Notes: a model not told the origin generated them from the letters alone. DNA of 64,000 nt from Fimbriimonadaceae bacterium (GCA_036502005.1 DASXZH010000075.1:10381-74380), one strand, 5' to 3'; counted from the stretch's first letter, positions 22,160 through 60,304 are shown. Translations and numbers: made by a program.

Positions 22160-22249
22160 GTAAACGGTAAACGGTGGGAGGAAACTCCGATCTGTTTACT
22201 GTTTACTGTTCTCCGTTCTAAGTTCTACTTACTCCGTGCTCCGTACCGT
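22160..22249. repeat. period-7 tract with short hairpin
   Basis: GTAAACG x2 (22160-22173) faces GTTTACT x2 (22194-22207). These are followed in phase by GTTCTCC, GTTCTAA, GTTCTAC, TTACTCC, GTGCTCC. Confidence 0.7.
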
Positions 22250-22280
22250 TTCCTTCCCCTTTCATGTATTCTAAATAACC

Positions 22281-23861
22281 GTGAAAGGCCAACTCTGTCT
22301 AATCGTCGCTTTGTGTTGTATAACCGCCTACGCCCAGAACCCCAATGCGGGCGGACAAGGGCAAGGCCGCCAACGTAACCGGCAAGCCCAAACTCCTCCG
22401 CCTACGGAGCCCGGCACAGCCGCCGCCGAAGGTTTCTCGCCCACCGAGGGTATGCACGCAGCGCCGGTAAGTAAAGACTGGGTTACCACCACTCACACCT
22501 GGCACGGCCATGGCCAATCCGTAAACTACACCGCAACTTGCGGTTTTATCCCGATCAAAGATGACAGCGATGTCACCGAAGCGCAAATGTTCTTTGTCGC
22601 TTACACAAAAGATGGTGCAGATCGGCTTACTCGGCCCGTAACTTTTGCATTCAACGGCGGCCCGGGCTCATCATCAGTCTGGCTGCATATGGGCGCGCTT
22701 GGACCCCGACGCGCAAAGATGAACGAGGATGGCACCATGCCACCACCTCCATTTCAGATTGCTGACAACGAGGAAAGCTGGCTGCCTTCGACGGATATTG
22801 TCATGATCGACGCGGTTGGCACCGGCTACAGCCGGCCAACCAAGCCAGAACTAGGCGCAAAGTTTTACGGCCTGCAGGGCGATCTCGCCGCTTTTACCGC
22901 TTTCATTAAGGGCTATATATCTGAGGAAGGCCGATGGCGCTCACCGATCCTTGTCGCTGGCGAGAGCTACGGAGGGATTCGGGTTGCCGGTCTTAGCAAC
23001 TCTCTGCTTCAAGCTGGGGTCGCCGTTAACGGCATTATTTCGATTTCGGGAGTAATGAACTTTGGCACCATCGACCCGGCCAAGGATAACGACATCCCCT
23101 ACCTCAGTTACCTGCCAGCCGAATGCGCGACTGCGATGTATTTTCATAAGATCCCAGACGCAAACTTCAAGGGAACAATTGCCGCCTGCGAGGAGTTTGC
23201 CTCAGGCGAATACGCCGCTGCGCTCATGAAAGGCAATGGCCTTTCGGATGTGGCGAAGAAGCACATTGCAGCTAAGTTGGCTTCGTTTACAGGCCTCTCT
23301 CCCCTCTATATCGAACGATCCAACTTAAGGATCTCGCCTTTCGGTTTCAGGGCCGAACTCCTTCGCGACAATTGGGATATCATCGGCCGCTATGATGGGC
23401 GTATTGTGGGCCACAACTCCAACGGCGTTAGCCAAGGCGCAGAATATGATCCTTCAGATGCTGCCACGAGCCCAGTTTTCACAGCCGCTTTTAACGACTA
23501 CATCACCCACGAGTTGAACTTCCACACATCGGAGACCTATCGCATCACGGCCTATCGGCAGATCAACGGCTGGAACTACGGAACGGACGGCCAAACACCT
23601 GACACTTCCGAAATGCTGCGCCGCGCCATGGAACAGAACCCGTACATGAAGGTGTTGCTGTGCTGCGGCTGGTATGACCTCGCCTGTCCCTACTTCGGCA
23701 TGCGCTACGTTATGGATCACTTGGGTGAGCAGAAGAAGCTGGAAAAGAATATTAAGTTCCAATACTTCCCCGCCGGCCACATGCTTTATATCGATACCGT
23801 GAGCCGCCAGAAGTTCGGAAGGGACATTGCGGAGTTTATTACTTCGGCTACCGGGAGGTAG
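22281..23861 (+). CDS. peptidase S10 family serine carboxypeptidase-like protein, secreted
   Basis: GTG start with a signal peptide (KGQLCLIVALCCITAYAQ). FNGGPGSSSVWLHMGALGP and GESYGG (nucleophile Ser) motifs. 526 aa. Confidence 0.8.
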   Translation: MKGQLCLIVALCCITAYAQNPNAGGQGQGRQRNRQAQTPPPTEPGTAAAEGFSPTEGMHAAPVSKDWVTTTHTWHGHGQSVNYTATCGFIPIKDDSDVTEAQMFFVAYTKDGADRLTRPVTFAFNGGPGSSSVWLHMGALGPRRAKMNEDGTMPPPPFQIADNEESWLPSTDIVMIDAVGTGYSRPTKPELGAKFYGLQGDLAAFTAFIKGYISEEGRWRSPILVAGESYGGIRVAGLSNSLLQAGVAVNGIISISGVMNFGTIDPAKDNDIPYLSYLPAECATAMYFHKIPDANFKGTIAACEEFASGEYAAALMKGNGLSDVAKKHIAAKLASFTGLSPLYIERSNLRISPFGFRAELLRDNWDIIGRYDGRIVGHNSNGVSQGAEYDPSDAATSPVFTAAFNDYITHELNFHTSETYRITAYRQINGWNYGTDGQTPDTSEMLRRAMEQNPYMKVLLCCGWYDLACPYFGMRYVMDHLGEQKKLEKNIKFQYFPAGHMLYIDTVSRQKFGRDIAEFITSATGR

Positions 23862-23869
23862 CCGTCGCA

Positions 23870-23997
23870 GCCTTCGGCCTTAGGCCTTAGGGGAATGACG
23901 GGCTTCCGGCGCTCCGTTCCCTTCGGACCATAAGTCGATTCAGCAGTAAACTTCCCCACTCCGAATGCCTAAGGCCGAATGCCTAAGGCCGAATGCC
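23870..23997. repeat. period-7 inverted arms in a convergent spacer
   Basis: GCCTTCG-GCCTTAG-GCCTTAG (23870-23890) lies opposite CCGAATG-CCTAAGG x2.5 (23961-23997). CGGCCTTAGGCCTTAGG pairs with the right arm at 15 of 17 positions. Confidence 0.7.
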
Positions 23998-24000
23998 TTT

Positions 24001-24570
24001 CTATGCTCCAGCCGCCTGTGCAACTGCCATGCGTTTCGCCCTAACCTGGCCCATATGAGCCTCAACCGCCTGATTAAACAGCGAATCGCTCGGAATCAAG
24101 TTGTGCAAAGCGAAGTAACCAATGAGCTCGCCGCCGGCCTCGCCAAGCAAAGCTAGATTTTCCATCGATTCGTCGCTAACCTGCTCCTTTAGAAGCTTCC
24201 AACCTTCGCTGCTCACTAAGAATGAGAACGAGCTGCGGCCCGCCGTGCGGGTATAGATCTGCCAAACCATAACCACCCCTTCCGCGTTCTCACGCTGCTG
24301 AATCGTAACCCTATAGCGCTTATCGCGCGAGGTGTATTGAATCTGATAAGGCGTGAGTCTAAAGCAGGCAAACAGGCCGTCACGGGTGGAACAAGCCTGC
24401 CTCATAAGGATCATGAGCTTGTTAGAAAGCGAAGTTCCGCTCACTGGCTCGCGGCTATTTAAAAGCGGCCGTAACTCAGATAAAACAAGAATGGACCACG
24501 GGTGCTCAAACACCCGCGCTTGAACATCAAGCGCGCTGCAAAGGGAGGGGGAGAGAACGAGCGCTTTCAT
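24001..24570 (-). CDS. hypothetical protein (orphan, bracketed by repeats)
   Basis: 189-aa ORF with no recognisable motif. Coding-like composition. Flanked by heptamer arms on both sides. Confidence 0.5.
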   Translation of the reverse strand: MKALVLSPSLCSALDVQARVFEHPWSILVLSELRPLLNSREPVSGTSLSNKLMILMRQACSTRDGLFACFRLTPYQIQYTSRDKRYRVTIQQRENAEGVVMVWQIYTRTAGRSSFSFLVSSEGWKLLKEQVSDESMENLALLGEAGGELIGYFALHNLIPSDSLFNQAVEAHMGQVRAKRMAVAQAAGA

Positions 24571-24682
24571 CTACTACTGTTATTATTGTGTGGTTTTGGC
24601 AATCCTTGCATGGTAAAGGACGCGACTATCGGATATTTCGCTCTTTTCGATAATTAGAGGCGCGCCTGTTGAGAGGAGTTCC

Positions 24683-24707
24683 TGGCCTTTGGCATTCGGC
24701 ATTCGGG
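24683..24707. repeat. period-7 arm (GGCCTTT-GGCATTC-GGCATTC), partner at 25056-25089
   Basis: 19 of 23 positions are complementary to 25066-25088. The two arms enclose about 360 nt that contain family-1 copy B. Confidence 0.65.
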
Positions 24708-24829
24708 GCGATTTTGTCCGGGAATGTCCAGTGCTTGTCATCGCAAATGGAAAAGTCCGAAATCATCCGTGGTCCGGCTATTCAACAATGGCTTCGAAGC
24801 TACTACCTTAGGTTGATCACAGTTATGGC

Positions 24830-25002
24830 TTAGTTCAAATAGCGAAGCGTTGTCATCCCGAACAAGGCCCCTCGGGCCGACTGAGGGACGAGCGCCGCCC
24901 AAACCAGTTCCGGCAAATCGTTAAAGTATGGATCGCTCGCGGTCCAACACTTTAACGAATTGCGATTCAAAGTTTGGGTCCCTCGCTTCGCTACTGAACT
25001 AA
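24830..25002 (+). repeat. family-1 intergenic element, copy B (full length, MITE-like)
   Basis: 173 nt with terminal inverted repeats TTAGTTCAAATAGCGAAGCG (24830-24849) and CGCTTCGCTACTGAACTAA (24984-25002). Internal hairpin GCAAATCGTTAAAGT / ACTTTAACGAATTGC (24913-24927 / 24949-24963). Confidence 0.75.
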
Positions 25003-25055
25003 CCGATTCCGCACTTTACTAATCGCAATGAGAACGCCGCTAGGTGAAACGTCTC

Positions 25056-25089
25056 GGGCCTAAGGCCGAACACCGAATGCCTAAGGCCG
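25056..25089. repeat. period-7 arm (GCCTAAG-GCCGAAC-ACCGAAT-GCCTAAG), partner of 24683-24707
   Basis: Reverse complement CGGCCTTAGGCATTCGGTGTTCGGCCTTAGGCCC. It abuts the stop of the VWA gene. Confidence 0.65.
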
Positions 25090-25093
25090 TAAT

Positions 25094-27913
25094 CTATTCC
25101 CCCTCTTTCCGCTTCCTCTTCGCATCCAACAACTTATTCGTCATCGTCCCAGGGGCGGGGACGGCCGGCTCCCGAGGCTCACTCGGCCTTTTCACACTTT
25201 GCGAACCAACCGAAACGGGCCTAACTGGCTCACCCGAAGAACTCGTGTTCGCCCGCTGCTTCGCCTGATGTAGCCTGCCCACCGCTTCAGCAGCAGGCGC
25301 GGCCCTCTGCACATGACGTCGATGCCTTAACCATCCAACCACTTTCGCATACATCTCCGCGATCGGCAGAGCAATACGCCGAGAAGCGATATCCAAAGGC
25401 AGCAGCAGCGCTGCCAATAACAAACAAACGGCCCACAGATCCTGAATCGAATAGCCTGGCTGAGGCACACCCCGAAAAGCTTCGGCCGGCGAGGTTAACC
25501 CCTTCCCGCCGGTAGTTTTTGCCACCGTTTTCAGGAGCGGCAGGTTCGTTCTAAAGCTGCGATACTCTAGCGGATACGGAATGGAAAAGCCCGAAGCGCT
25601 GACCCGCTTTGTTCCGCTCGCATCGGTTTCCGCGATGCTCACAATGTAAGACCCAATCTGCCCCGCCGTAAAGTTGCCGCTGTATTGGCCCGGTGCGCTC
25701 TGCGTAAGTGACATATCCGCAGAGCTTCCATCCGGAGCGGAAACGATCACCCTTGCCGGCAGGTTGTTAACCGGGTTGCCATTGGCATCGCTCGCTTTTA
25801 GGCTCACTACTGCCTTAGCGCCTTCCAGCTTTGTCTCCAGTTGATATTGGTTGCTGGCCGCTCGACGGCTGATCTCACGAACCGCTTGCGCCCAAAAAGT
25901 GCCAAACCCGTCCCAGGGCACCCATTTCGCTGCCCATCGAGCCTGTGCGTCTGAAGTGAAAGCCAGGGTTGTCCCAAGTCCATACTGCCAAACGGCGAGG
26001 AGTGGATCATCTTTCGCCGTCTTCATTCCGGTACGGGCCAACGGCTTAAAATCCGTTAAATCGTAGGCCAGTAAAGGAGGAATTGTGCTTGAATCAATCC
26101 CTTTCAGGATCTCTTCACCCATGGAGACTTTCGGCAAAAACGCCCCTTCCTCAATCGCGGACCGAGCAACCATCGCTGCATCTTGCGTGAACACGGCGGG
26201 AAGCTGATTTCCGTGAAGGGCCAAGTAGAACCGCCCGCCCCCAACTGCCGCAAGCTGCTTTAAAAACGGCACGTATTGGCCGTCGCCGATAGCCACGCAA
26301 CTGGTGGTGATATGCTCGACGCGCATGCGTGCCGCCACTTCAAAACAGCCATCGCGAAGGTCGACATCCGAACCATCCGCCATCAAAATAAGGTGTCGAA
26401 CCTTGCTCTGCTCTAGCTCCAAATGAGCAATGGCAAAATCCATGGAAGGCTTCGCGTAAATGCCGCCGCCGCCCACATCCATTCGCATGATGTCGTGCAC
26501 CATCTGCGCCTTGTTTGACAGCTTCTGCATGGGTGCCACAAACTCGATCGCATCCGTGCTCGCGACCACCCCCGCCCGGTCCTGGGAAGACATCATTTGA
26601 ACGGTGAAAGCGGCCGCTTTCGCCGCGAGTTTCACCTTCATCACACCATCCTCGACCATGCCCATGCTGCCTGAGGTGTCGCAGATGATGAGCACCGAAG
26701 TGCTGGGGAATGAAACCCGCTTTTTAACTTCTAAATCGACGGGCAGGGTATCGGCTACCGGTGTTCCGAACCACCCTCCGGGCAGGAACGAATCTTCCCC
26801 GCCGATCATACCAAAGCCGATACCGGTATCGCGCACCGCGCTCTTCATTAGCTTCATCTGGTCAGGCGTAATGGGCTCAGCCGCCACATCGTTATAAAGG
26901 ACCGCATCGTAAGCTTGCAAGTCTTCGGCATGGGTTGGCGCGCCGTAAGGGCCGCTAACCACCGTGTCGATATTCTGCTGCCGCAAAGCTGCCGCCAGCG
27001 GGCTGCTCTGCGGTTTGCTTTGCAAAATCAGCACCTTGGGCTTGCCTCGCACGACAACAAAGCCAACCCCCACGTTGTTGCGTGTGTCGTGATCTCCCTG
27101 AGCTTCGATAGTCGCCCGATACCGGTGAAACCCAACCGTGTCCACCGCCTGATCGAAGGCGAAAGTATTCTCGCCAGGGCTCAACGTAACCTGCGACTTC
27201 TTTACTTCCAACCCATCGCGATCCAGGGAGAGAAGACCCTCCGTCGCGATATCGGAGCTAACGCTCACTTTAACCTGAAATGGCCGCCCTGAGCGGCTAT
27301 CGCTGGGAACTTGAAGTTCGTTAATTGCGACCTCGCCGCGGATTTCCGCTCCCAAAGGCACAAAGTCGATAGGCACATTTTCGGAAGCGGAAACTTCGGC
27401 CGCGCGTTCTACTTCCCCGCTCGTTTCGTTGCCGTCCGAAAGCAAAACCATCCGCCTAGACTTGCCATCGGGAAAAGTGGCACTGGCCAGCCGAACCGCT
27501 GCCGCGATGTCGGTCGCGCTGCCGTCTACCACCGAAGTCACCCGGTCGAGATTGGAAGTGGTGCTCGGCATCGTTTCGACCGTCGCGTCCTTCCCGAACA
27601 CAACGATTCCAACCTCATCGTCCGGTGCAAGATTGGATATCGACTTCTTGATGAAATCTTCCTGCTTGGATCGATCCTTATCTTGGATAGAATCCGACCT
27701 ATCCAAAAGGAAGATCGTGCAAAGTCCGTGGTTCTTGCGAAAAGCCTCTGGCCCCGCGAGGGCCACCACCAACAGACCAATCAATAAGAACCGAAGGAAA
27801 AACGCGAGCCTTTTTCGGGCCTTTAACATCCCATGAACGCGCGGGTAAGACAGAGCTAGCGCAATAAAAAACGGGATTAAGAGAAGCAAATAGAGGGGAT
27901 CGGAAAACCTCAT
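25094..27913 (-). CDS. BatA-N-terminal-domain protein with two von Willebrand factor A domains
   Basis: 939 aa. The N-terminal double-TM MRFSDPLYLLLLIPFFIALALSY is aerotolerance-regulator-N type. Two MIDAS motifs, FLLDRSDSI and LIICDTSGSM. C-terminal TM and a basic tail. Confidence 0.75.
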   Translation of the reverse strand: MRFSDPLYLLLLIPFFIALALSYPRVHGMLKARKRLAFFLRFLLIGLLVVALAGPEAFRKNHGLCTIFLLDRSDSIQDKDRSKQEDFIKKSISNLAPDDEVGIVVFGKDATVETMPSTTSNLDRVTSVVDGSATDIAAAVRLASATFPDGKSRRMVLLSDGNETSGEVERAAEVSASENVPIDFVPLGAEIRGEVAINELQVPSDSRSGRPFQVKVSVSSDIATEGLLSLDRDGLEVKKSQVTLSPGENTFAFDQAVDTVGFHRYRATIEAQGDHDTRNNVGVGFVVVRGKPKVLILQSKPQSSPLAAALRQQNIDTVVSGPYGAPTHAEDLQAYDAVLYNDVAAEPITPDQMKLMKSAVRDTGIGFGMIGGEDSFLPGGWFGTPVADTLPVDLEVKKRVSFPSTSVLIICDTSGSMGMVEDGVMKVKLAAKAAAFTVQMMSSQDRAGVVASTDAIEFVAPMQKLSNKAQMVHDIMRMDVGGGGIYAKPSMDFAIAHLELEQSKVRHLILMADGSDVDLRDGCFEVAARMRVEHITTSCVAIGDGQYVPFLKQLAAVGGGRFYLALHGNQLPAVFTQDAAMVARSAIEEGAFLPKVSMGEEILKGIDSSTIPPLLAYDLTDFKPLARTGMKTAKDDPLLAVWQYGLGTTLAFTSDAQARWAAKWVPWDGFGTFWAQAVREISRRAASNQYQLETKLEGAKAVVSLKASDANGNPVNNLPARVIVSAPDGSSADMSLTQSAPGQYSGNFTAGQIGSYIVSIAETDASGTKRVSASGFSIPYPLEYRSFRTNLPLLKTVAKTTGGKGLTSPAEAFRGVPQPGYSIQDLWAVCLLLAALLLPLDIASRRIALPIAEMYAKVVGWLRHRRHVQRAAPAAEAVGRLHQAKQRANTSSSGEPVRPVSVGSQSVKRPSEPREPAVPAPGTMTNKLLDAKRKRKEGE

Positions 27914-30600: not shown

Positions 30601-30602
30601 AC

Positions 30603-34821: not shown

Positions 34822-34822
34822 G

Positions 34823-35752: not shown

Positions 35753-36602
35753 TGTTCATTTTCCCTGCAAGGCTGTTCCGGCGTTCACGAATAGAGGCGA
35801 TGGCTAGCAACAGAAACATCAAAGTAAGGCTCCCGTAAAATAGGAGCTGCATCGGCGCGGTGTACATTCTTCCCGCATGGTGCGGCCCACCTCCTAAATA
35901 AGGAGCAGGGTTTTCGATGGACATGACATAGAAGGCGGTCATAAATGGGTGCGTCCAAAGCAGATACTCCCCGCTGTTGCTTTCGTTGCCCAAGGTTGGA
36001 ATGATAGCGACCAGCATCGGCCATAGAATCATCCAAACAAAAAGGATCGCGTAAATGGTCGCTTGGGCGCTAAAGGCCCGATTCATTAACGAAGAGATGA
36101 AAATCCCGAGGGCAGCAAAAGCGATCCCAAACCCGATCGAGGCGGTCTCGCTGGCAAGAACCCCCCAAAGTTGGTCATGAGGGGCGTAATTCTCCTTGCC
36201 GAACGAGCAAATGATCACGATTGGCAAGAGCCCCACGGCCACTGCAAGAACGACCGAAATAGCGCTAAGAAATTTGCCCAAAATGATTTGGGTCTTGGAA
36301 ATCGGAGCAACCATAAGCATGTCCCAGCTTCGGCGTTCCCGTTCCCCGGCAATGGCGCCAAAAGTGACGGCGGGGACGATGAAGCAAAAGAGGAACGACT
36401 GAAATAGCGTAATGTGCTCCGCCGTTAAGGAGTTCATGTTGGCAAATGCGATGCCCACGATCGATAAGTAAATTACGGCAAGAAGGAAGATCAGCGCCTT
36501 GTTGGTTGTCTTGCTCTTTGAAGCTCCGACAAACTTCCGCCAGAACCGGCGCGCTTCCACCAGCAGCGGGTTTTCGGTGAAGTTCTGGCTAAACCAGCTC
36601 AT
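35745..36602 (-). CDS. ABC-2 family permease
   Basis: 285 aa with six hydrophobic segments. 8-nt overlap with the ATPase gene. Confidence 0.7.
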   Translation of the reverse strand: MSWFSQNFTENPLLVEARRFWRKFVGASKSKTTNKALIFLLAVIYLSIVGIAFANMNSLTAEHITLFQSFLFCFIVPAVTFGAIAGERERRSWDMLMVAPISKTQIILGKFLSAISVVLAVAVGLLPIVIICSFGKENYAPHDQLWGVLASETASIGFGIAFAALGIFISSLMNRAFSAQATIYAILFVWMILWPMLVAIIPTLGNESNSGEYLLWTHPFMTAFYVMSIENPAPYLGGGPHHAGRMYTAPMQLLFYGSLTLMFLLLAIASIRERRNSLAGKMNNA

Positions 36603-36687
36603 GAGTTCCCTCCAAGCTTCTCAATGAGACCCCCATAGGCGTTAAATTAAGGTTGGGAGCGCTACTTTCAAAGGTGCGTAGCTCGCG

Positions 36688-36837
36688 CCTCTCCCGGTTC
36701 GCGGACTCACCGACCTCTCCATCCGGGAGAGATTTGTGGCTGCGGAAATACCAAAGTTGCCTTATTTTAATGGATATGCGGATAACCCGTCGCCCCTCTC
36801 GGGCGGAGGGGCCGGTGAGTCCCCGAACCGGGGGAGG
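36688..36837. repeat. 33-nt imperfect inverted repeat with local hairpins
   Basis: CCTCTCCCGGTTCGCGGACTCACCGACCTCTCC (36688-36720) versus GGAGGGGCCGGTGAGTCCCCGAACCGGGGGAGG (36805-36837): 29 of 33 positions complementary. The left copy also folds locally (CTCTCCCGG / CCGGGAGAG). Confidence 0.7.
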
Positions 36838-36881
36838 TCCCGAGGAAACAAACCTGGGAACAATGGGCAATGGAAACCAGT

Positions 36882-43515: not shown

Positions 43516-43695
43516 CGTGACGAGTGAGAGGTGATAGGGGAAGGGGATCGGATCGGATCGGATCAAAGGATATTCGACGTTTGATAAACAAACAAGCACT
43601 CTAGCAATACATTCGGTCCATCCGCTATCCGCTATCCGCCATTCTCCACCCCTCCATCCACTTTAGACCTTCGACACTCCCCTATGACCTATCAC
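43516..43695. repeat. short-period tracts in the MarR/lipoprotein divergent spacer
   Basis: GTGACGA-GTGAGAG-GTGATAG (43516-43536), (GGATC)x4 (43545-43564), TCCGCTA-TCCGCTA-TCCGCCA (43621-43641), and CCCCTATGACCTATCAC (43679-43695), which is partly complementary to GTGATAGGGG. Confidence 0.6.
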
Positions 43696-45039: not shown

Positions 45040-45396
45040 CCAGAAGGTTTTACCCGTCGGGATTCTCGAATCTCGATTGGGGATCGAAGTCTTTAGATGC
45101 CGCTTGGTTGTGTCGCCTTGGCTATCGGTCATGGGGCATAACTCGACTGTCTGAACCAGTTGTGTCTGGTTATGTCCGGTTCTGGCTGCCACAACTGGTT
45201 CAAAATTGGGAGTTTCTCGAAAAAAGTTGTTCACACTTTGGAATGGCATTTTTCCGGCAAGCCTAGATTCGGAGTTTATGAAGTTCTTCAAGGATCAGGC
45301 GTCAGGTTCGTTATTCAAACCACCTTTGAATACTGGACGCCACTGCCTCTTCTTAAAGGTTCAGGCTTTTAGGTCCTCAGCCGAAGCACACGAGTA

Positions 45397-45548
45397 GGGG
45401 GCCTTATGCCAACTCTCATTTGATCTTGGAGCTGTTTGTAGGCTGATTTATCAGAACCTCTCCCCCTTCCCCCTCTCCTCTGCCGGAGCACAGGAGAAGG
45501 GGGGGCCTTATGCCAACTCTCATTTGATCTTGGAGCTGTTTGTAGGCT
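45397..45548. repeat. two perfect 48-nt direct repeats, period 104 nt
   Basis: GGGGGCCTTATGCCAACTCTCATTTGATCTTGGAGCTGTTTGTAGGCT occurs at 45397-45444 and 45501-45548. The 56-nt spacer is a C/T-rich hairpin (CTCTCCTCTG...CAGGAGAAGG). The flanks are also similar but diverged. Confidence 0.85.
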
Positions 45549-45588
45549 TGGTTTTTCGGAACCAACCAATCAAAAATCCATAAGCAGT

Positions 45589-46017: not shown

Positions 46018-46062
46018 GTATGTTGCGTTAGACGCGCGGGCGGGGGGAATGGATTCTACTGG

Positions 46063-46186
46063 GTGACGGGTAACGTGTGACGCGTGACGGGTAGGCAGCA
46101 AACTGCCGTGGATCTGGAAAGCAAAACCGCCTTGTAACGCACGTATTGGTTCCAGACACGTCACTCGTCACGCGTCACTCGTCACC
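46063..46186. repeat. period-7 inverted arms (GTGACGN units) around a 59-nt core
   Basis: Left GTGACGG-GTAACGT-GTGACGC-GTGACGG (46063-46095). Right GTCACTC-GTCACGC-GTCACTC-GTCACC (46155-46186). 26 of 32 positions complementary. Confidence 0.7.
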
Positions 46187-46210
46187 ACTCCGCCGTAGTA
46201 AACAATTCCT

Positions 46211-49409: not shown

Positions 49410-49410
49410 A

Positions 49411-50298: not shown

Positions 50299-50360
50299 GA
50301 CTAACTATCATCATAGCTGCGGTTTGTTCTGGCGATAAGGCGATGGGCCTATTGGCAGAT

Positions 50361-50423
50361 GTGATAGGTGAAAGGTGATGGGGGATAGGAGATAGGAGAT
50401 AGGAGATAGGAGATAGGGGATGG
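50361..50423. repeat. nine tandem heptamers, consensus GRGATAG
   Basis: GTGATAG GTGAAAG GTGATGG GGGATAG GAGATAG x4 GGGATGG, in perfect phase. Confidence 0.85.
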
Positions 50424-50453
50424 GCAGAAAAATGAAACCGGATCAAGTCCGGT
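50424..50453 (-). terminator. intrinsic terminator candidate after the CDP-alcohol phosphatidyltransferase gene
   Basis: Minus strand reads ACCGGA-CTTGA-TCCGGT followed by TTCATTTTTCTGC. The stem is only 6 bp. Confidence 0.4.
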
Positions 50454-50467
50454 CACTTAAGCGAGCG

Positions 50468-51045: not shown

Positions 51046-51048
51046 TGT

Positions 51049-53250: not shown

Positions 53251-53286
53251 GCCAATATTGAAGCAGACATAGCCTAGTTATACACT

Positions 53287-53376
53287 GGATTTGTGAGCCG
53301 GTGGCAATGCCACGTAGATTGCTGCGTAGCTAGCCCGCCTACGGCGCGCTGCCTCTCCTCGCAACGACAAATTTCC
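53287..53376 (+). repeat. family-2 small palindromic element, copy 1
   Basis: GGATTTGTGAGCCGGTGGCA...GTAGATTGC...CGGCGCGC...GACAAATTTCC. The ends are inverted repeats of each other. About 70% identical to the reverse complement of 61605-61691. Confidence 0.65.
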
Positions 53377-53441
53377 TATTTTGGGGGCGGCAAAGAATCC
53401 TAAAATGCTTTGCGATTTCCTAATAGCCTTAAGCCTTCCAC

Positions 53442-53574
53442 TAGGTTCAAATAGCGCCTTGTCACTCTAAGCGCGACCTCCGGGCCGAAGCGAGGGACGG
53501 GTGCGACTCAACCCAATTCAGGCAAATCGTGAAAGTGTTGGGCCGCTTGCGGTTCTTCACCATCACGATTTGCC
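53442..53574 (+). repeat. family-1 intergenic element, copy C
   Basis: TAGGTTCAAATAGCG..TTGTCACTC...GCGAGGGACGGG...GGCAAATCGTGA(30 nt)TCACGATTTGCC. The terminal 12-bp perfect hairpin is at 53521-53532 / 53563-53574. Confidence 0.7.
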
Positions 53575-53587
53575 ACACAAGACTTTC

Positions 53588-54451: not shown

Positions 54452-54475
54452 TTCTCTCTCTCCCTTTCCTTTTGT

Positions 54476-55252
54476 TTAATCCGTAGCCTCGATGAGTTGC
54501 ACATTTCGCGCGCCAACATCTTCCAAAACTTGCTGGATAACATCATAATCTGCTCCTCCCGGAGGAGTTGCAATGGCAACTACCGCGCCACCTTTCTCAA
54601 AATCTGCCCCCAACATGAACGCTAAATCAGCTGGCACGCCCTGGTCTTCAAGGTAATCCTGAATATGAGCGGCCGGGACGCCGCCCACTTCGTCGGCCAT
54701 GCCGGCCCCCATCACGCTGGTTGCCAGCGCGCCATCCCCGATGGCGATTCCGAGATTCGGTATTGCGACGGAGGAAATCTCGTCGCCAATTGCATTTTTG
54801 TCCACGTTGGGCAAACCTAAGCTTTCCTGGTTTGGCTTGGTCGTGTTGAAAAACCCGGTGTTAGTTGCCTGCACGGTATCGCGCCTTTCCTGCGAAGAAT
54901 AGGATTGGGCGCTGGCCGGATAGCTCATCTCTTCGGCCGCTTCCTGCGAATCGTCCATCTCCTCCACGCTGGAAACGTCGTCGTCAGGAGTTGAAGTGCT
55001 GATTCCTCCGCCTATTCGCGACTCGTGAACATAGGAGCCTTCCGTTTGGATACCGGTGTGGCCGAACCTAATGGTTTCCGCGTCCCCCGAATCAACCATG
55101 ACCAAGGCCTCGTTGCTGTCTTCTAAGCTGGCGTGGTTGTTTTTGACAATGAGGCTCATGTCCTCCGCGGCAACACCGGATTCTAGTAGCGAGCCGACCA
55201 AACGCTCAGCGACTTCGCCATTTGTGAACGATGCAAAAACTGTTGGTAACAT
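54476..55252 (-). CDS. paralogue of 53588-54451 (YflT-like N- and C-terminal modules)
   Basis: FASFTNGEVAERLVGSLLESGVAAEDMSLIV ... YLEDQGVPADLAFMLGADFEKGGAVVAI. Same architecture with an acidic middle region. Confidence 0.5.
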   Translation of the reverse strand: MLPTVFASFTNGEVAERLVGSLLESGVAAEDMSLIVKNNHASLEDSNEALVMVDSGDAETIRFGHTGIQTEGSYVHESRIGGGISTSTPDDDVSSVEEMDDSQEAAEEMSYPASAQSYSSQERRDTVQATNTGFFNTTKPNQESLGLPNVDKNAIGDEISSVAIPNLGIAIGDGALATSVMGAGMADEVGGVPAAHIQDYLEDQGVPADLAFMLGADFEKGGAVVAIATPPGGADYDVIQQVLEDVGARNVQLIEATD

Positions 55253-55342
55253 CCCTTTACCTCTCTTACTGGATGACCTCAGTATAAGCGCGCATGTTCC
55301 TGCATGCGTGTGGTGATTAACGTGGACGCAGGGTTAGGAATT

Positions 55343-55370
55343 TTTGGATTTTTGATTTTTGATGTTTGAT
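55343..55370. repeat. four tandem heptamers (TTTGGAT TTTTGAT TTTTGAT GTTTGAT)
   Basis: Read directly. Followed by two copies of TCCCTCGCA(A/C)GGAGTTC at 55392 and 55453. Confidence 0.7.
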
Positions 55371-55489
55371 TGGTGGCAGGGTCACCGGCATCCCTCGCAA
55401 GGAGTTCGGGACAAGGGCCATAAATGCTGTCCGCTTGGGCTTTGCCCCCGGGTTCCCTCGCACGGAGTTCATGATGACAAACTTGACTA

Positions 55490-56477
55490 TTAGGCCACTT
55501 TTGCAGGAGCACCATCACTAGCGGCGGATTTCCAAGCAGCCTCGGTAAGCCGAATTACTTCTAGTCCGCACTCAAAAGGCGACTCGCATTCGGCACGGTC
55601 CAGAATCGCATCGATAAAGTTCTGATCCGGCGTGCTGCCACCCGAAAGATGCTCCGCCTTAAACTTGTTATCCTTTCTATCTACCATGGTCAGCACGTTG
55701 GCTCGCATGTAGAAAACCATGTTTTCGCAGACGATGCTCACGTCCTCGTACCAGCCGAAGCCATTCCCAACAACGCCCAGCGAAGCTTGGGCGCCATTCT
55801 TGAACTTGACGGCGAGCGTAGAGTTGATGTCAACCTCAGTTCCGAAATTATCGGTGAAGGCGCAAATGCTAGCGGGCTTGCAGGCCGGTTACCCAAAGGA
55901 TGACGTCCAGCAAGTGGCTGGCTGAGTCGTTTAGCTGGCCGCCACCGGAGAGCGAGAGCTTTTGTCGCCAAGTGCCGCTGGTGGCCTTAAGCCATCCCTG
56001 CTCCTGAATGGCGCTGACGAATTGCACCTTCCCAGCTTCCCCGTTTTGTATCTTTTCTCGAATATAGCGATACTCCGGCTGATAGTGGCGCTGGTAGCTA
56101 ACGAGGCCAACCTTGCCCGCCTTGTCTCTAGCTTCAATCACTCGATGGGCATCTTTAACAGTCGTGACAAGCGGCTTCTCGCAGCAGACGTGGGCGCCGG
56201 CTTCAAAGGAATCTACGATCTGATCCGCATGCTGGGTATGGGGCGTGGCGATCATGACCGCATCCGGCTTAACTCCTTTCAGCATCTGCCGATAGTCTTC
56301 AAAGACGGGACAGTCTGCCAGTTGCGGATACGCTTCGATTGTCTTTTGAATCTGCTCCGTATCGGGGTCGACCAACGCGACCACTTTCGCTTCTTTGACT
56401 TTAAAAAGATTGCCCAAGCGGTAGCGCTGAAAGCCTCCGCAACCGATCATTCCGACCGTTACAACGTTGTTTGCCAC
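55490..56477 (-). pseudogene. Gfo/Idh/MocA family oxidoreductase, frame broken once
   Basis: The Rossmann half (VGMIGCGGF...EKPL) ends at TAG 55869-55871 after WVTGLQAR. A neighbouring frame continues KPASICAFTDNFGTEVDINSTLAVKFKNGAQASLGVVGNGFGWYEDVSIVCENM... to 55490. One extra base near 55876-55885 explains this. Confidence 0.75.
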
Positions 56478-56500
56478 GGTTGTGAAGCATACCGGGGCTT

Positions 56501-56629
56501 CGCGTGATAAGTGATAGGAAATAAGTGATAGGTCCGGAGGGCCCTTCCCCTTGCGCTCCGGCGGAGGGGGAAGGGTTGCGATGGGGGTTTTTCGCTCCCT
56601 ATCACCTTTTACATATCACTTATCACGCG
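56501..56629. repeat. period-7 inverted arms (GTGATAA/GTGATAG) enclosing an inner G/C hairpin
   Basis: CGCGTGATAAGTGATAGGAAATAAGTGATAGG (56501-56532) versus CCCTATCACCTTTTACATATCACTTATCACGCG (56597-56629): 28 of 32 complementary. Inner stem CCCTTCCCC / GGGGGAAGGG. Confidence 0.75.
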
Positions 56630-56638
56630 CGAAGCGCG

Positions 56639-58036
56639 CTAAGGCGTTACCGTCGCTCGCGTTCGCTGAATAACCTGATCCAAGAAGGACGTGTTGTTCG
56701 GCGTTCGCTTAAGTAGCTTGATAAGCTGCTCGGTGGCTTCAACTGAACTATTCTGATTTGCCACCATTCGGTGCAATTGAACAACGCCATCCAGCTCATC
56801 CTTGTCGAATAGTTTCTCCTCGTGGCGAGTGGAGCTGCGCTTCACATCGATGGCGGGCCAGATTCGGCGCTCGGAAAGGTCGCGATCAAGCACGATTTCC
56901 ATGTTGCCGGTGCCCTTGAATTCTTCAAAGATGGCGTCATCCATTCGGCTTCCAGTATCGATCAAAGCAGATGCGATGACGGTTAACGAGCCACCCTCTT
57001 CAATGTTTCGGGCGGAGCCGAAGAATCGGCGCGGACGATACAAAGCGGAAGGATCCAAACCACCGCTAAGGGTTCGGCCCGAAGGGTTAATGGTCAAGTT
57101 AGAAGCGCGAGAAAGACGCGTAAGCGAATCCAACAGGATCACAACGTCTCGGCCTGCTTCAACCAAACGCTTGGCTTGCTCAAGGCAGAGTTCGGAAACG
57201 CGGATATGGTTTTCGGGCGGCTCATCGAACGTGGAGCTAATAACTTGGCCACGTACAGAACGGCGGAAGTCGGTAACTTCTTCAGGCCGCTCATCCACGA
57301 GCAGAACCATTAGGTAGCACTCGGGATGGTTGGCGGTGACGGCGTTGGCTATCGTCTTGAGAATCGTTGTCTTTCCAGCTTTTGGAGGAGACACGATGAG
57401 ACCGCGCTGGCCCTTACCGATCGGCGAGATGAGATCGATGATTCGAGCGACGATGTTGTCGCCCATGGTTTCCATCTTGATTCTCTCTTCAGGGTGAAGG
57501 GGCGTCAGTTCATCGAAGTTCTTTCGATGCTGCATTTCCGAAGAGGCAGTGGCGAGGTTGTTAACGCTCTCGACTCGGAGCATGCCCTGATACTTTTCGC
57601 CTTCCTTGGGCGGGCGCACCTGGCCATACACCATATCTCCTGGGCGTAAAGCAAAGCGCTTCACTTGAGATTGGGAAACGTAAACGTCTTGGTTGGAGGG
57701 CTGATAGTTATCGCGGCGCAAAAAGCCCCAGCCGTCGTTTAGAACTTCGAGAATGCCTCGGGCGTAAATAGCCCCTTGTTCGGCGTTTGTGAAGTTGAGA
57801 AGTTGCTCGATGACCTCATGTTTGGTCTTATCGGCGATGGAGATCTTGGCGGATTTTGCAGCCTTTGCAAGGTCTGCGGGCGCCAATTGGTCGAAATGAT
57901 TAAAATCCTGTTCTGGCAGCGCTTCTAAGTCTGATGCGTTGTCGGTTCTTGGGAGACCTTCGCGGGAACGGCCACGGCCGCGACGCTGGCCGCCGCCTCC
58001 GCCGTCCGACTTACGAGGTCGAAATTGATGAGTCAT
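56639..58036 (-). CDS. rho: transcription termination factor Rho with Arg/Gly-rich N-terminal extension
   Basis: RNA-binding RFALRPGDMVYGQVRPP, Walker A SPPKAGKTTIL, and a RecA-like C-terminal domain. The first ~35 aa are MTHQFRPRKSDGGGGGQRRGRGRSREGLPR. Confidence 0.9.
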   Translation of the reverse strand: MTHQFRPRKSDGGGGGQRRGRGRSREGLPRTDNASDLEALPEQDFNHFDQLAPADLAKAAKSAKISIADKTKHEVIEQLLNFTNAEQGAIYARGILEVLNDGWGFLRRDNYQPSNQDVYVSQSQVKRFALRPGDMVYGQVRPPKEGEKYQGMLRVESVNNLATASSEMQHRKNFDELTPLHPEERIKMETMGDNIVARIIDLISPIGKGQRGLIVSPPKAGKTTILKTIANAVTANHPECYLMVLLVDERPEEVTDFRRSVRGQVISSTFDEPPENHIRVSELCLEQAKRLVEAGRDVVILLDSLTRLSRASNLTINPSGRTLSGGLDPSALYRPRRFFGSARNIEEGGSLTVIASALIDTGSRMDDAIFEEFKGTGNMEIVLDRDLSERRIWPAIDVKRSSTRHEEKLFDKDELDGVVQLHRMVANQNSSVEATEQLIKLLKRTPNNTSFLDQVIQRTRATVTP

Positions 58037-58057
58037 ATTGCTCCTGTTTTGCGGTTG

Positions 58058-58079
58058 AGAAAAAGTCGAACGCCGACTT
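58058..58079 (-). terminator. intrinsic terminator candidate after hpt
   Basis: Minus strand reads AAGTCG-GCGTT-CGACTT followed by TTTTCTC. The stem is 6 bp. Confidence 0.45.
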
Positions 58080-58108
58080 GCTTCAGCCTGTGTGGAAAGA
58101 GTGGGAGA

Positions 58109-58642
58109 TTAACCCTCGCGAAGAACTGCAATATAGGGAAGATTCCTATAACGTTCCGCGTAATCTAAACCATATCCTACCACAAACTCGTTTGGAATCT
58201 CGAATCCGACGAATTCAATCATCGCATCTCGTTCTCGAGCCTCAGGTTTGGAAAGCAAGGACGCAACTTTCAAAGATTTCGGCTTTCGGGTCAACAGCAA
58301 CTCTCTTAAGTGGCTGAGGGTTATCCCCGTGTCGACGATATCTTCAACGATAAGGACGTGCTTGTCCTCGATATTGATATCTAAATCTTTTCTAATTTGT
58401 ACGACGCCACTGGAAGACTTTTGGTTACCGTAACTGCTGACCTGCACAAAGTCTACGGTCACGTTCGGCCCAAGTTTCCGGCAGAGATCGGCTAGGAAGA
58501 GAAAAGATCCCTTTAAAACGGCTACGAGAAGCAAAGTCTCTGCGCCGTAGGTTTGGCGAATCGCATCCGCCATCTCTGAAATTTTATCGGAGATTTGCTG
58601 CTCAGAAATTAGGACATCTAACGATTCTGCCACCGCGGCCAT
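58109..58642 (-). CDS. hpt: hypoxanthine phosphoribosyltransferase
   Basis: Start at ATG 58642 (MAAVAESLDVLISEQQI). PRPP motif VLIVEDIVDTGITL and C-terminal VGYGLDYAERYRNLPYI. The 268-aa ORF version only adds translated heptamer repeats. Confidence 0.9.
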   Translation of the reverse strand: MAAVAESLDVLISEQQISDKISEMADAIRQTYGAETLLLVAVLKGSFLFLADLCRKLGPNVTVDFVQVSSYGNQKSSSGVVQIRKDLDINIEDKHVLIVEDIVDTGITLSHLRELLLTRKPKSLKVASLLSKPEARERDAMIEFVGFEIPNEFVVGYGLDYAERYRNLPYIAVLREG

Positions 58643-58677
58643 GGGATTTGTTAAAGTTACCACGTTTTGGGAAGCAA

Positions 58678-58962
58678 GTCGAAGGTCGAAAGTCGAAAGG
58701 CGAAAGCCGGACCGAAGAAAGGCGAAGGTTGAACTCGAAAGTCGAAAAGCGTAAGTCGAAGGTCGAAAGGCGAAAGGCGAAAGGCGTAAAGTCGAAGGTC
58801 GAAGGTCGAAGGTCGAAAGCCGGGCGGTGGAAAGGCGGAAAAGGCAGGCAAGGCAAATGCGGAGGCGCAATTCGTTAAAAACAAAGGCACTTTTAGTCTC
58901 CATCAGGTGTGGCACAAAGCCCCACCCTCGGCTTTCGACCTTCGACCTTCGACCTTCGACTT
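58678..58962. repeat. largest period-7 element: ~150-nt GTCGAAR/GGCGAAA array plus perfect 34-bp inverted repeat
   Basis: 16 in-phase heptamers from 58678, then one 1-nt slip, then more. AAGTCGAAGGTCGAAGGTCGAAGGTCGAAAGCCG (58789-58822) is the exact reverse complement of 58929-58962. The core is 106 nt. Confidence 0.9.
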
Positions 58963-59123
58963 CCTATTCCGGGCACCCATTCGCGCTTATCACTCGTATT
59001 ACTCCGTGTTATCTCTTGGCGCTTCCGAAAGCTTTTCAATCGAATTGCGAATGGACAAATCGACTCGGACCTGAGCACGTCATTAATAACAGGGCGCTTG
59101 AGCCCCATTTTGAGGAGACCAGT

Positions 59124-60140
59124 TTGAAAGTTTATTCAGTTATTGCCTTGGCCCTGGCTGCAGTCGCAACCTTTGCGCAAGTCGACCCGGCAAAGACCGT
59201 GCTTACAATAAATGGCGAGAACGTTAACGGTGCTGAATACTACCGCCGTATGGAGTTCCTTCCGGATGTTGGACGGGTGCTGGAAGGCGGCCACGTCGCT
59301 GTTTACCCACCCGGATTCCTCACGATCGTGCAACTGATTAACGAACATTTGGTGCTTCAGTTGGCTAAGCAGAAGGGCCTTATTCCCACGGATCAGGAAA
59401 TTGATAACACCCTTTCGGAAACAGAAGCGGCGGATCCGAATTTTAAATCCAGTTGGATCAACTCCGGCCGAACTGAGCCGGAACTTCGTGATCAGGTTCG
59501 TTTTCAGCTTATCCAGTTCAAACTAACCACTGAGGGCATCACCGTCTCCGATCAGGAAGTGGCCGATTTCTATCACAGCAGTTCGATTCCTGGACTAACG
59601 ACAGTGCCTCGCTCAGTAAAGATGAGTTTGATCGCAGTTAGAGACGACACCGGCATGAAAAAAGTTGACAGCGATCTTGCTGCAGGCAAGAGCTTCTCCG
59701 CCGTTGCCCATGATGAAAGTGCAGATGCCACCTCAGCGAACGGAGGCGAACTCGGAACCGTCGCCATCGACAATCTTCCGAAAGAGGTTGCCAATGCGGT
59801 AGACCACACACACCAGGGTGAAGTGACGGGCTGGGTTTCCGTTCCGGTTGGTACCAGCAGCGACGGAACCACGCCCCTTATGGTTCATGTGAAGTACTCT
59901 ATTGAGAGCAAAGAAGCGGAAAAGCATTTTGACTTCAACGACGCATTAAAAAGCCGTTTGCGCCGTTATCTTATGCTGAACAAAGGCAAGATAAAGAATG
60001 ATGTGGAGGTTGAACTTTCGGCGCTCCGAAAGACCTCCAAGATCGCCATCACTTCGCCAGAGTTTGCGAAGATGTATGAGCAGTTCATGAAGGAGTTTTT
60101 CCGGGAGTCCGTCACGACCAGCGGGGGCTCCGGAAGTTAG
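59124..60140 (+). CDS. SurA-like / parvulin-type peptidyl-prolyl isomerase, secreted
   Basis: TTG 59124 is preceded by GAGGAG. Signal peptide KVYSVIALALAAVATFAQ. A SurA-N-like chaperone region, then ANGGELGTVAIDNLPKEVANAV (rotamase-like). Confidence 0.65.
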   Translation: MKVYSVIALALAAVATFAQVDPAKTVLTINGENVNGAEYYRRMEFLPDVGRVLEGGHVAVYPPGFLTIVQLINEHLVLQLAKQKGLIPTDQEIDNTLSETEAADPNFKSSWINSGRTEPELRDQVRFQLIQFKLTTEGITVSDQEVADFYHSSSIPGLTTVPRSVKMSLIAVRDDTGMKKVDSDLAAGKSFSAVAHDESADATSANGGELGTVAIDNLPKEVANAVDHTHQGEVTGWVSVPVGTSSDGTTPLMVHVKYSIESKEAEKHFDFNDALKSRLRRYLMLNKGKIKNDVEVELSALRKTSKIAITSPEFAKMYEQFMKEFFRESVTTSGGSGS

Positions 60141-60304
60141 AACTTAGAACAGAGAGCTTAGAACGGAGAACGGAATGGCCGCAAGCAAATCGGTTTCGGA
60201 GCTTCTTTCCCGTAGGGTGTCCGGGCCTCTAGGGCCCGACGTTTGCCGTTTGGTGTTACGGTCCCCTTCGTTCTACTTTCCAAGTTCTCCATTCTAAGTT
60301 CTCC
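60137..60304. repeat. period-7 inverted arms (TTAGAAC/GGAGAAC vs GTTCTCC/ATTCTAA)
   Basis: Left arm TTAGAAC TTAGAAC AGAGAGC TTAGAAC GGAGAAC (60137-60171). Right arm GTTCTAC TTTCCAA GTTCTCC ATTCTAA GTTCTCC (60270-60304). Inner stem CGGGCC/GGCCCG. The same units recur at 22208-22228. Confidence 0.7.

Follow-up and report, generated by a model that had tools for sequence, protein, structure and literature searches.

Paired heptanucleotide repeat arrays with strand polarity relative to genes in a Fimbriimonadaceae lineage

Introduction

Long simple sequence repeats (SSRs), which have tandem units of 5–11 nucleotides (nt), were surveyed by Mrazek (2007); as summarised in later papers, that survey ranked heptanucleotides first in abundance among the long SSRs of most genomes, with a sporadic distribution (Burkholderia, cyanobacteria, actinobacteria and Xanthomonas), and offered an explanation based on the polymerase footprint (PMC4679880, PMC4692102). 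Here we describe heptanucleotide tracts in a 64,000-nt stretch of DNA from a Fimbriimonadaceae bacterium (GCA_036502005.1 DASXZH010000075.1:10381-74380; hereafter the window), where they occupy ten intergenic loci, in seven cases as inverted arms on either side of a unique core, and follow a strict strand polarity relative to the adjacent genes. To our knowledge, neither a reason for the number 7 nor a general function of heptamers has been described.

Among the described systems, each Xanthomonas genome carries 70–75 intergenic pairs of convergent GGGAATC arrays, a pair type that is conserved between species while the lengths vary (Rehm et al. 2015, PMC4692102). In the hmw system of Haemophilus influenzae, (ATCTTTC)n forms one arm of a hairpin in the 5′ untranslated region that is cleaved by RNase III, and changes in repeat number require transcription and folding of the hairpin (Rapun-Araiz et al. 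2025, PMC12721329). TAACTGA arrays lie beside start codons in Beggiatoaceae (169 direct sets and one indirect), and CspB binds heptamer repeats, one protein per heptamer, with a preference for pyrimidine-rich ones (MacGregor 2015, PMC4679880). Proposed binders of these arrays and of the cyanobacterial short tandemly repeated repetitive (STRR) sequences are the proteins Csp, S1 and CsrA (PMC4679880). A preprint on Nostoc attributes regulatory effects to heptamer repeats but names no binding partner.

The tracts of the window are heptanucleotide long SSRs, a class that includes the cyanobacterial STRRs and the GGGAATC arrays of Xanthomonas. They show iteration beyond chance, a preference for intergenic DNA, sporadic occurrence and copy-number instability, the last with the caveat that the 50-nt indel on which it bears may be an assembler collapse. 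As far as the summaries of the Mrazek (2007) survey describe them, long SSRs in general are likewise tandem 7-nt units iterated far beyond chance length in intergenic DNA, with slippage proposed as their source, and occur sporadically in free-living bacteria with large genomes; but the general description available there includes neither inverted pairing nor gene polarity, both of which are present here. STRRs and TAACTGA arrays resemble the window in forming many intergenic heptamer arrays, often near starts, and STRRs in having several families per genome, but they belong to other phyla, consist of other units and are described without inverted arms (PMC4679880). The literature that we searched holds no report of heptamers in Armatimonadota, and a 2025 tree-of-life survey of short tandem repeats mentions neither heptamers nor Armatimonadota. 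What is new here is the host lineage; the kind of element is already known.

Seven-nucleotide periodicity in intergenic DNA

A first-pass annotation of the window, made from the sequence, had listed ten loci with tandem 7-nt units, which we call A to J in order of position. All ten were present at the stated coordinates, and reading in the 7-nt register reproduced every listed unit. Tandem Repeats Finder (TRF) returned 15 period-7 rows and 4 period-14 rows, all within 22160–60304, together with 70- and 77-nt higher-order rows for 58676–58819 (20.4 copies); only 43516–43536, with three imperfect units, fell below its threshold. Across the 64-kb window, the same-base frequencies in intergenic DNA were 0.300, 0.284 and 0.279 for lags of 7, 14 and 21, respectively, with neighbouring lags at 0.24–0.26; coding DNA gave 0.2435 at lag 7 and a period-3 signal only. 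An exact-run test (at least nine consecutive matches, one threshold for all lags, about 0.26 runs expected per lag) counted 10, 8 and 4 runs at lags 7, 14 and 21, respectively; no other lag from 1 to 20 had more than one. All 10 lag-7 runs lie in non-coding DNA, which makes up 12.5% of the window. The 7-nt tandem tracts are real and go far beyond chance.

As the annotation had also proposed, the tracts lie outside supported coding sequences, on which the Joint Genome Institute (JGI) gene calls and the Pfam coordinates agree, and finders of open reading frames (ORFs) read through them to give spurious N-terminal extensions for MscL, Pribosyltran and the PrsA-like peptidyl-prolyl isomerase (PPIase). 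The MscL ORF has 191 amino acids (aa) against the 142 called, with Pfam starting at residue 50; the ORF at 58109–58915 has 268 aa against 177 for the Pribosyltran gene; and the PPIase ORF has 437 aa against 374 or 338. A coding role as heptad peptides is ruled out, because neither the called genes nor the regions with Pfam support include the tracts.

The window is 100% identical to contig Ga0376652_0000496 of JGI metagenome 3300036780 over 22.8 kb and 21.3 kb (L001 and L117), and over a further 9.4 kb (L083) the JGI sequence equals it except for one indel: 50 extra nt (AAAGTCGAAAAGCGTAAGTCGAAGGTCGAAAGGCGAAAGGCGAAAGGCGT) at window 58737/58738, within the tract at 58676–58819, with identity over the other 9.3 kb. 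The indel fits ongoing slippage and would represent either population heterogeneity or assembler collapse. Unitigs of Logan SRR11833492 (L002 and L084), 100% identical to the window, stop at or inside repeat tracts, L084 at 50413 within tract F and L002 at 24841, inside the core-C copy of a 95-nt dispersed repeat. Such breaks are what an assembly artefact would lead one to expect, but the tracts are identical in three assemblies and related tracts stand at orthologous sites in independent samples, and we consider this origin, together with the transposon-like one discussed below, extremely improbable.

Positions 1–22000 of the window hold no heptamer tract detectable by TRF despite about 2.4 kb of spacers. 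Between 22 and 60 kb, each kb of spacer holds about 1.8 loci, from which a rough Poisson calculation gives P of about 0.01 for the empty part. The latter carries glycosidase and sugar-uptake genes and two paralogous PA14 genes (12367–14688 and 14836–17208, about 75% nucleotide identity).

Mirror-image arms around unrelated cores

At seven loci (A, B, C, E, H, I and J) the tract on one side of a unique core faces its inverted counterpart on the other, as the first-pass annotation had described, with arms of 22–47 nt that are 70–100% complementary and cores of 16, 69, 359, 69, 65, 106 and 96 nt, respectively. Locus D has a weaker arm pair, and F and G are unpaired single tracts. A paired element starts with a G-rich arm and ends with a C-rich one, and the unique core between them carries one or more GC-rich hairpins of its own. 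The succession of variant units along one arm recurs, mirrored, along the other: the opposed arms of locus H read GTGATAA-GTGATAG-GAAATAA-GTGATAG and GTGATAA-GTGATAT-GTAAAAG-GTGATAG; each arm of locus J alternates between TTAGAAC and GGAGAAC; and the arm pair of locus I is identical at 34 of 34 positions. Arm mismatches, which are few, show no G:U wobble bias for either strand. Because of the mirrored unit order, the 34/34 pair and the lack of a G:U bias, the arms look like young DNA-level inverted copies, unlike old helices under RNA-level selection.

When folded with their arms, the loci gave −31.1 kcal/mol (z −7.0) for A, −68 and −72 kcal/mol (z −5.3 and −6.9) for E, and −74 and −66 kcal/mol (z −7.3 and −9.8) for H; z-scores for B, D and J were −2 to −3.6 (−3.4 for the plus strand of D). 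The predicted arm helices are very stable. The first-pass annotation had thought paired inverted arms undescribed, but the convergent pairs of Xanthomonas (PMC4692102) and the heptamer hairpin of hmw (PMC12721329) precede them: seven window loci consist of two nearby convergent arrays, as in Xanthomonas, and their repeats pair with a complementary arm in long predicted hairpins, as in hmw.

Both likenesses have limits. Like GGGAATC in Xanthomonas and GGGGAYT in Nostoc, the window arrays are intergenic, and Xanthomonas pairs also place the G-rich arm first and the C-rich arm second; but Xanthomonas uses a single, G-quadruplex-capable G-tract unit genome-wide, whereas the window has at least five or six families, mostly without GGG (PMC4692102). 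Because most unit families lack GGG runs, G-quadruplex formation is unlikely here, and G-quadruplex repeats were rejected as a candidate (GTGATAG, GTCGAAG, GTAAACG, GGAGAAC, GCCTTAG and others have no regular GGG tracts). Like hmw1A and hmw2A, the window has upstream heptamer SSRs with a pyrimidine-rich sense strand, a long hairpin with a complementary G-rich arm and variable copy number (PMC12721329). The hmw repeats, however, represent a single virulence locus of a host-adapted pathogen, a G-rich stretch forms their right arm in place of a mirrored array of heptamers, and their RNase III cleavage and expression effects are experimental, whereas the window hairpins are predicted in silico (PMC12721329).

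The idea that each locus has its own unit did not hold: there are six exact cross-locus unit matches against about 0.2 expected. GTTCTCC/GTTCTAA occurs at both 22208 (in the extension of locus A) and 60270 (J); GCCTTAG/CCGAATG occurs four times between 23870 and 25089 (B and C), on both sides of the gene at 24001–24570; and a GNGATAG family is common to D (43516), F (50361) and H (56501). In all, 40 kb contain at least five or six unrelated unit families with no common consensus. The cores share nothing comparable: no 8-mer occurs in three or more of them, and no core-to-core BLAST match was found.

Positions of the tracts

Locus A consists of a 5′ arm with more G than C at 22158–22175, (GTAAACG)2.3 by TRF, which the fold pairs with 22192–22210, and a 3′ arm at 22192–22249, (CTGTTTA)2.7 followed by C-rich GTTCTCC/GTTCTAA/GTTCTAC, upstream of an S10 peptidase gene. 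Locus B lies between convergent genes, with (GCCTTAG)3 at 23870–23891 and (CCGAATGCCTAAGG)2.7 at 23961–23998; 22 nt of each (23870–23891 and 23961–23982) are 86% complementary, 69–83 nt apart. At locus C, whose units belong to the same family as those of B, GGCATTC at 24684–24706 faces CCTAAGG/CCGAATG at 25056–25089, and 23 nt (24684–24706 and 25066–25088) are 87% complementary at a distance of 359 nt. Locus D has a G-rich left tract at 43516–43564, GTGACGA-GTGAGAG-GTGATAG followed by (GGATC)4 at 43545–43564, upstream of marR (minus strand), and a C-rich right tract at 43620–43639, (ATCCGCT)2.9, upstream of a plus-strand gene that starts at 43821. In locus E, (GTGACGN)4 at 46046–46092, upstream of mscL (minus strand, start 46017), faces (CGTCACN)4 at 46163–46209, upstream of a histidine kinase gene (plus strand, start 46217), over 47 nt at 70% complementarity.

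The single tract of locus F, (GRGATAG)8–9 at 50361–50423, is C-rich on the minus, sense strand and lies between a terminator-like hairpin (50436–50454) and the start of an ABC_tran gene at 50298; that of locus G, at 55340–55371, is (TTTTGAT)4.4 by TRF. At locus H, the arm GTGATAA-GTGATAG-GAAATAA-GTGATAG (56501–56532) stands 24 nt upstream of the start of a minus-strand GFO gene, and its complementary arm (56598–56629; 32 nt, 88%) comes directly after the rho stop codon (56639, minus strand); the unique core between them (56533–56597) has its own GC-rich hairpin, CCCTTCC..GGAAGGG. The long G-rich tract of locus I (58673–58822), with more than 20 GTCGAAR/GGCGAAA units, stands 34 nt upstream of the minus-strand Pribosyltran–rho operon; its 3′ arm, (CCTTCGA)4 at 58929–58962, is 100% complementary over 34 nt to 58789–58822 and adjoins a conserved leader/promoter block of the PPIase gene. 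In locus J, TTAGAAC/GGAGAAC units at 60133–60174 overlap the PPIase stop codon (60140), and GTTCTCC/ATTCTAA units at 60269–60304 stand upstream of mazG, with 34 nt (60139–60172 and 60269–60302) 82% complementary.

Core C also holds the second copy of the dispersed repeat mentioned above, a direct repeat of about 95 nt (21318–21416 and 24820–24919, 88% identical). The two copies differ in the inner stem of a small hairpin (GGCCGCTAGGCC and GGCCCCTCGGGCC), and the repeat shows no significant overall fold, has no Rfam match and is absent from all relatives fetched.

The TTTTGAT unit of locus G is the heptad of the Vibrio cholerae ctxAB promoter repeats, as far as the sources consulted describe these, and occurs in short runs in Pelagibacter (L069 and L072). 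The identity is probably a coincidence of an AT-rich motif.

Distribution in other genomes

We surveyed about 110 fetched rho and PPIase loci (L003–L082 and L085–L116), applying the exact-run test to L003–L082 and L085–L114 and TRF to L115 and L116. The closest Rho relative (L033, 83% identity) has nine lag-7 runs in 16.8 kb. A protein search yielded two relatives, L115 and L116 (PPIase identity 85% and 78%, respectively), that share synteny with the window around PPIase; both carry period-7 and period-14 arrays by TRF, and L004 and L038 give weaker period-7 TRF signals. A Chloroflexia metagenome-assembled genome (MAG; L077, CAWJBF010000012.1) has four lag-7 runs, and about 30 further Armatimonadota and about 45 other bacteria show no more than one. 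Occurrence is sporadic and lineage-specific, with one narrow Fimbriimonadaceae lineage and one Chloroflexia MAG. None of about 36 Armatimonadota rho loci shares the neighbour genes of the window, and those loci serve as a density survey only; a metagenome scan with the PPIase protein found no close relative (best match 42% identical).

The closest Rho proteins (72–83% identity) come from MAGs of Fimbriimonadaceae, Fimbriimonadales and other Armatimonadota, and the PPIase protein of the window is labelled MAG TPA Fimbriimonadaceae bacterium at NCBI. With the nearest Rho and PPIase relatives in Fimbriimonadaceae and Armatimonadota MAGs, the host is not cyanobacterial, as the first-pass annotation had judged from the gene content. 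Canonical STRR units are CCCCAGT, TTGGTCA and CAACAGT. Cyanobacterial STRRs were rejected as a candidate identity, because the host is not a cyanobacterium and no window unit equals these under rotation or reverse complementation, compared by eye.

Inverted arms around a core of about 70–140 nt recur in L033, L004, L038, L077 and L116. In L077, the same arms, (AGTGCTG)n...(CAGCACT)n, flank two unrelated cores of about 70–85 nt (524–669 and 16952–17074). L077 also has GAAAGTT tracts, at 11863 and 14374.

Inverted termini around an interior of 65–106 nt, and the same arm units at several loci in the window and again in L077, would suit MITEs (miniature inverted-repeat transposable elements) with heptamer arrays as terminal inverted repeats. 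All interiors are unrelated, however, those of L077 included, arm length and copy number differ, and no target-site duplications were seen. We rejected the MITE reading because no homologous interior is common to the copies; the view that the tracts are not one dispersed element, already taken in the first-pass annotation, stands.

Turnover at orthologous spacers

Comparison with L115 and L116 shows how the spacers change. A non-coding block upstream of PPIase (window 58965–59123, L115 175–350, L116 6490–6666) is nearly invariant in all three: GGGCACCCATT...CTCGTATTAC...GTTATCT, then AATTGCGAATGGACAAATCGACTCGGACCTGAGCACGTCATTAATAACAGGGCGGAGGAG. It has no Rfam match and probably combines a promoter with a leader that is structured or regulated. 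Directly upstream of the block, the window has (CCTTCGA)4, L115 has (GTTTCGA)4–5 followed by (CTATCCC)3, and L116 has no tract; the alignment at this site shows concerted unit replacement, copy-number change, and gain or loss.

The leader also contains AATTGCGAAT, which is related to an exact 13-mer, TTAACGAATTGCG, found only twice in the window (24952–24964, plus strand, in core C, and 58866–58878, minus strand, in core I). The 13-mer may be an operator or due to chance.

In the rho–GFO spacer, the GFO-side arm is orthologous between the window (GTGATAA-GTGATAG-GAAATAA-GTGATAG) and L116 (GAGATAG-GTGAAAG-GTGATAA-GTGAAAG), and both retain the inner hairpin CCCTTCC..GGAAGGG with TTTTT after it; L116 has in addition a new pair, (TGTCTTG)4...(CAAGACA)4, around a 141-nt core. 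In the PPIase–mazG spacer, the heptamer arms of the window correspond to a 57-nt-arm inverted repeat in L115 (1431–1559, 84% complementary, 15-nt loop, without 7-nt periodicity) and to a simple hairpin of about 17 bp in L116. Where relatives lack heptamers, the rho stop codon is followed by ordinary GC hairpins. At each of these sites a predicted hairpin persists, and the heptamer arms overlie it as a layer that evolves fast. Copy numbers and units differ at orthologous sites in L115 and L116, and pairing is not kept at locus H, where L116 has the left arm without a complementary partner. The structure- or mechanism-driven origin that the first-pass annotation had suggested fits the mirror arms, the hairpins kept at orthologous sites and the concerted unit turnover.

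Such turnover raises the possibility of a neutral mutational by-product, in which a replication or repair peculiarity of the lineage, such as the polymerase footprint invoked by Mrazek (2007), favours 7-nt slippage and functionless tracts persist where they are harmless. The sporadic and narrow phylogenetic distribution, the fast gain, loss and unit replacement between relatives at 78–85% protein identity, the unconserved pairing at locus H, the lack of a wobble signature and the variety of housekeeping genes at the flanks all favour it. On the other side, the same units recur at distant loci, arms stay 82–100% complementary, and the strict polarity to gene starts described below needs at least purifying selection on orientation. 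We regard this explanation as possible, though unlikely.

Strand polarity relative to genes

An automated pair search in the window and six tract-bearing relatives yielded 11 pairs, five of them in the window. The 5′ arm has more G than C in 10 of the 10 informative pairs, and the one further pair is neutral; because the arms are inverted, the polarity holds on both strands. Read on the sense strand, a G-rich arm follows the stop codon and a C-rich arm precedes the start codon, and in the divergent spacers D, E and I the strand that is sense to each gene is C-rich beside its start. The sense-strand GC skew is −0.58 for tract bases up to 100 nt upstream of starts and −0.056 for all remaining upstream DNA. 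The unpaired tracts (F and G) obey the same polarity, and so do those of L033, L115 and L116.

The G-rich tract strand is full of AGGAG/AAGGA/GGAG motifs and GTG/ATG codons, and the C-rich, G-poor strand that precedes starts has no Shine–Dalgarno-like or GTG/ATG motifs. Because the G-rich strand is so full of motifs resembling ribosome-binding sites and of GTG/ATG codons, selection against decoy ribosome-binding sites is the simplest explanation of the polarity, although a leader rich in C and poor in G may have a function of its own. Strict polarity relative to start codons may be a new feature. In Xanthomonas, G-rich and C-rich strands are both found on transcripts, in contrast to the strict orientation to start codons seen here (PMC4692102), and the hmw polarity is opposite to that of the window, with the pyrimidine arm first (PMC12721329). 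We did not find the orientation rule stated for the Xanthomonas, cyanobacterial or Beggiatoaceae heptamers.

A uniformly C/U-rich, G-poor sense strand before starts (polarity 10/10) is also what would be expected if the tracts were phased loading arrays, bound by one single-stranded-nucleic-acid-binding protein per heptamer (with a cold-shock-domain or S1-like oligonucleotide/oligosaccharide-binding fold, or Rho), with the complementary arm as a competitor or sequestering partner. The recurrence of unit families at several loci is what recognition motifs would show, and the longest tract lies in front of the Pribosyltran–rho operon. In Escherichia coli, rho is autoregulated through Rho-dependent attenuation in its leader. 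CspB provides a precedent for binding of pyrimidine-rich heptamers at one protein per heptamer (MacGregor 2015, PMC4679880). Yet a single recognition protein sits poorly with the number of unrelated unit families (at least five or six within 40 kb), which lack a common consensus, and with wholesale unit replacement between close relatives; moreover, the promoter- and leader-like block of PPIase is downstream of the tract, which may leave the tract untranscribed, and no candidate protein was identified. We find loading arrays quite unlikely.

The placement of tracts in divergent promoter regions (D, E and I), 24–95 nt from start codons, bears on a further alternative, that they are contingency promoter elements whose copy number alters promoter geometry or the distance to a regulator, as with TTTTGAT at V. 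cholerae ctx or the heptamer direct repeats of SARP regulators. The 50-nt length difference between assemblies agrees with this, as does a −35-like GTCACA within an arm of locus E, with a −10 TAGAAT. But half of the loci lie downstream of stops or between convergent genes (A, B, H and J), inverted arms are unnecessary for spacing effects, and the flanking genes are neither surface nor antigenic; in a promoter consensus scan of the window, matches were no more frequent than in shuffled sequences. This alternative is highly unlikely.

Searches for known elements and other features of the window

Intergenic hairpin-forming repeats include repetitive extragenic palindromes, bacterial interspersed mosaic elements and intrinsic terminators, and the purine-first, pyrimidine-last order seen here resembles the A-tract, hairpin and T-tract of bidirectional terminators. 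The window elements differ in having tandem heptamers as arms, no conserved palindrome sequence and no U-run. Intrinsic, Rho-independent terminators were accordingly rejected as an identity, because no U-run directly follows the stems. A consensus terminator scan flagged no arm pair, only the hairpin at 50436–50454 with its T-run, and its total was not above that of shuffled sequences. With Rfam 15, only a tRNA-Glu reaches the gathering threshold in the window, and at E ≤ 1 nothing credible appears in 21000–25500 or 55000–61500.

The gene content is ordinary: GH42 and GH53 glycosidases, RecJ, a Bat/VWA/MoxR operon, MarR–MFS and MscL, a PAS histidine kinase, ABC-2 transporters, Pribosyltran–rho, the PrsA-like PPIase and MazG. 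The genes that flank the tracts are housekeeping genes of many kinds, with no surface or antigenic genes among them. The GFO/IDH/MocA oxidoreductase gene (55496–56477, minus strand) is frameshifted near 55870–55875, with residues 1–201 and 203–327 of the L116 orthologue falling in two different frames; it is either a pseudogene or carries an assembly indel, and the JGI calls there comprise only the first 193 aa and small overlapping ORFs. The spacer between a GNAT gene and mscL contains an 88-nt near-tandem duplication (45374–45458 and 45476–45563, 88% identity), in which JGI calls a 66-aa ORF. The longest inverted repeat of the window (36688–36729 and 36796–36837; 42 nt, 83% complementary, 66 nt apart) is non-heptameric and lies within coding sequence, at the junction of the genes 36589–36885 and 36882–38705.

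Discussion

The reading that we prefer, and that commands about half of our confidence, is that the tracts would arise by slippage and by copying across hairpins, the arms being variable-length extensions of hairpin stems. We infer this origin from arms that mirror each other's unit order or match perfectly, from units that change in concert and from hairpins that persist. A tract would grow and shrink by slipped-strand mispairing of 7-nt units beside a pre-existing intergenic hairpin; the second, complementary arm would come from intramolecular template switching or gene conversion across the hairpin and would be re-homogenised in the same way. Copying across the hairpin would therefore give each locus its G-rich arm, its core with one or more GC hairpins and its C-rich arm, and orientation would be filtered so that the C-rich, G-poor strand is the one read just before a start codon.

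Whether transcribed or extruded as DNA, the arms would add a helix of 22–34 bp that closes the core hairpin, a length that would suit RNase III and strongly block passage. By changing the length of the stem, slippage would adjust processing, stability or termination, or how well adjacent genes are insulated from one another. Possible roles include an RNase III or other processing site, a barrier to exonucleases or termination, and an insulator, with the H. influenzae hmw hairpin as an experimental parallel.

Several observations weigh against slippage and copying across hairpins, or against a role for the resulting helix in RNA. The arm mismatches carry no wobble signature, L116 does not preserve the pairing of locus H, no U-runs follow the arms, and the terminator and promoter scans show no enrichment. 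In the divergent spacers D, E and I the two arms are probably on different RNAs, and the 3′ arm of locus I may be untranscribed, given the conserved promoter-like block downstream of it. Local slippage fails to explain identical units at loci 38 kb apart, and it leaves both the period of 7 and the strict polarity unexplained.

A more speculative extension, which we think rather improbable, is that a transcription- and hairpin-dependent process makes and homogenises heptamer arrays on both flanks of intergenic hairpins and so creates a strand-polar intergenic punctuation code. The process would operate in this Fimbriimonadaceae lineage and, independently, in some Chloroflexia, in Xanthomonas and in others, with the hmw work as the only hint of it; the G-rich arm after stops and the C-rich arm before starts would be read by RNase III, Rho or a cold-shock-domain protein. 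If this were true, Rho would use C-rich arms as rut-like loading sites, including before rho itself, and a cold-shock-domain protein with a 7-nt footprint would also explain the period.

In practice, the tracts fragment short-read assemblies and give gene callers false N-terminal extensions. What the lineage adds to earlier descriptions of heptamers is the strict strand polarity to genes and the comparative evidence for hairpins that stay in place as the heptamer arms turn over. If the orientation rule holds genome-wide, purely neutral slippage would be insufficient, and RNA-level or transcription-linked explanations would be favoured. With several unit families in 40 kb, paired arms, and relatives that differ by gain, loss and concerted replacement at the same sites, the lineage is a compact natural experiment.

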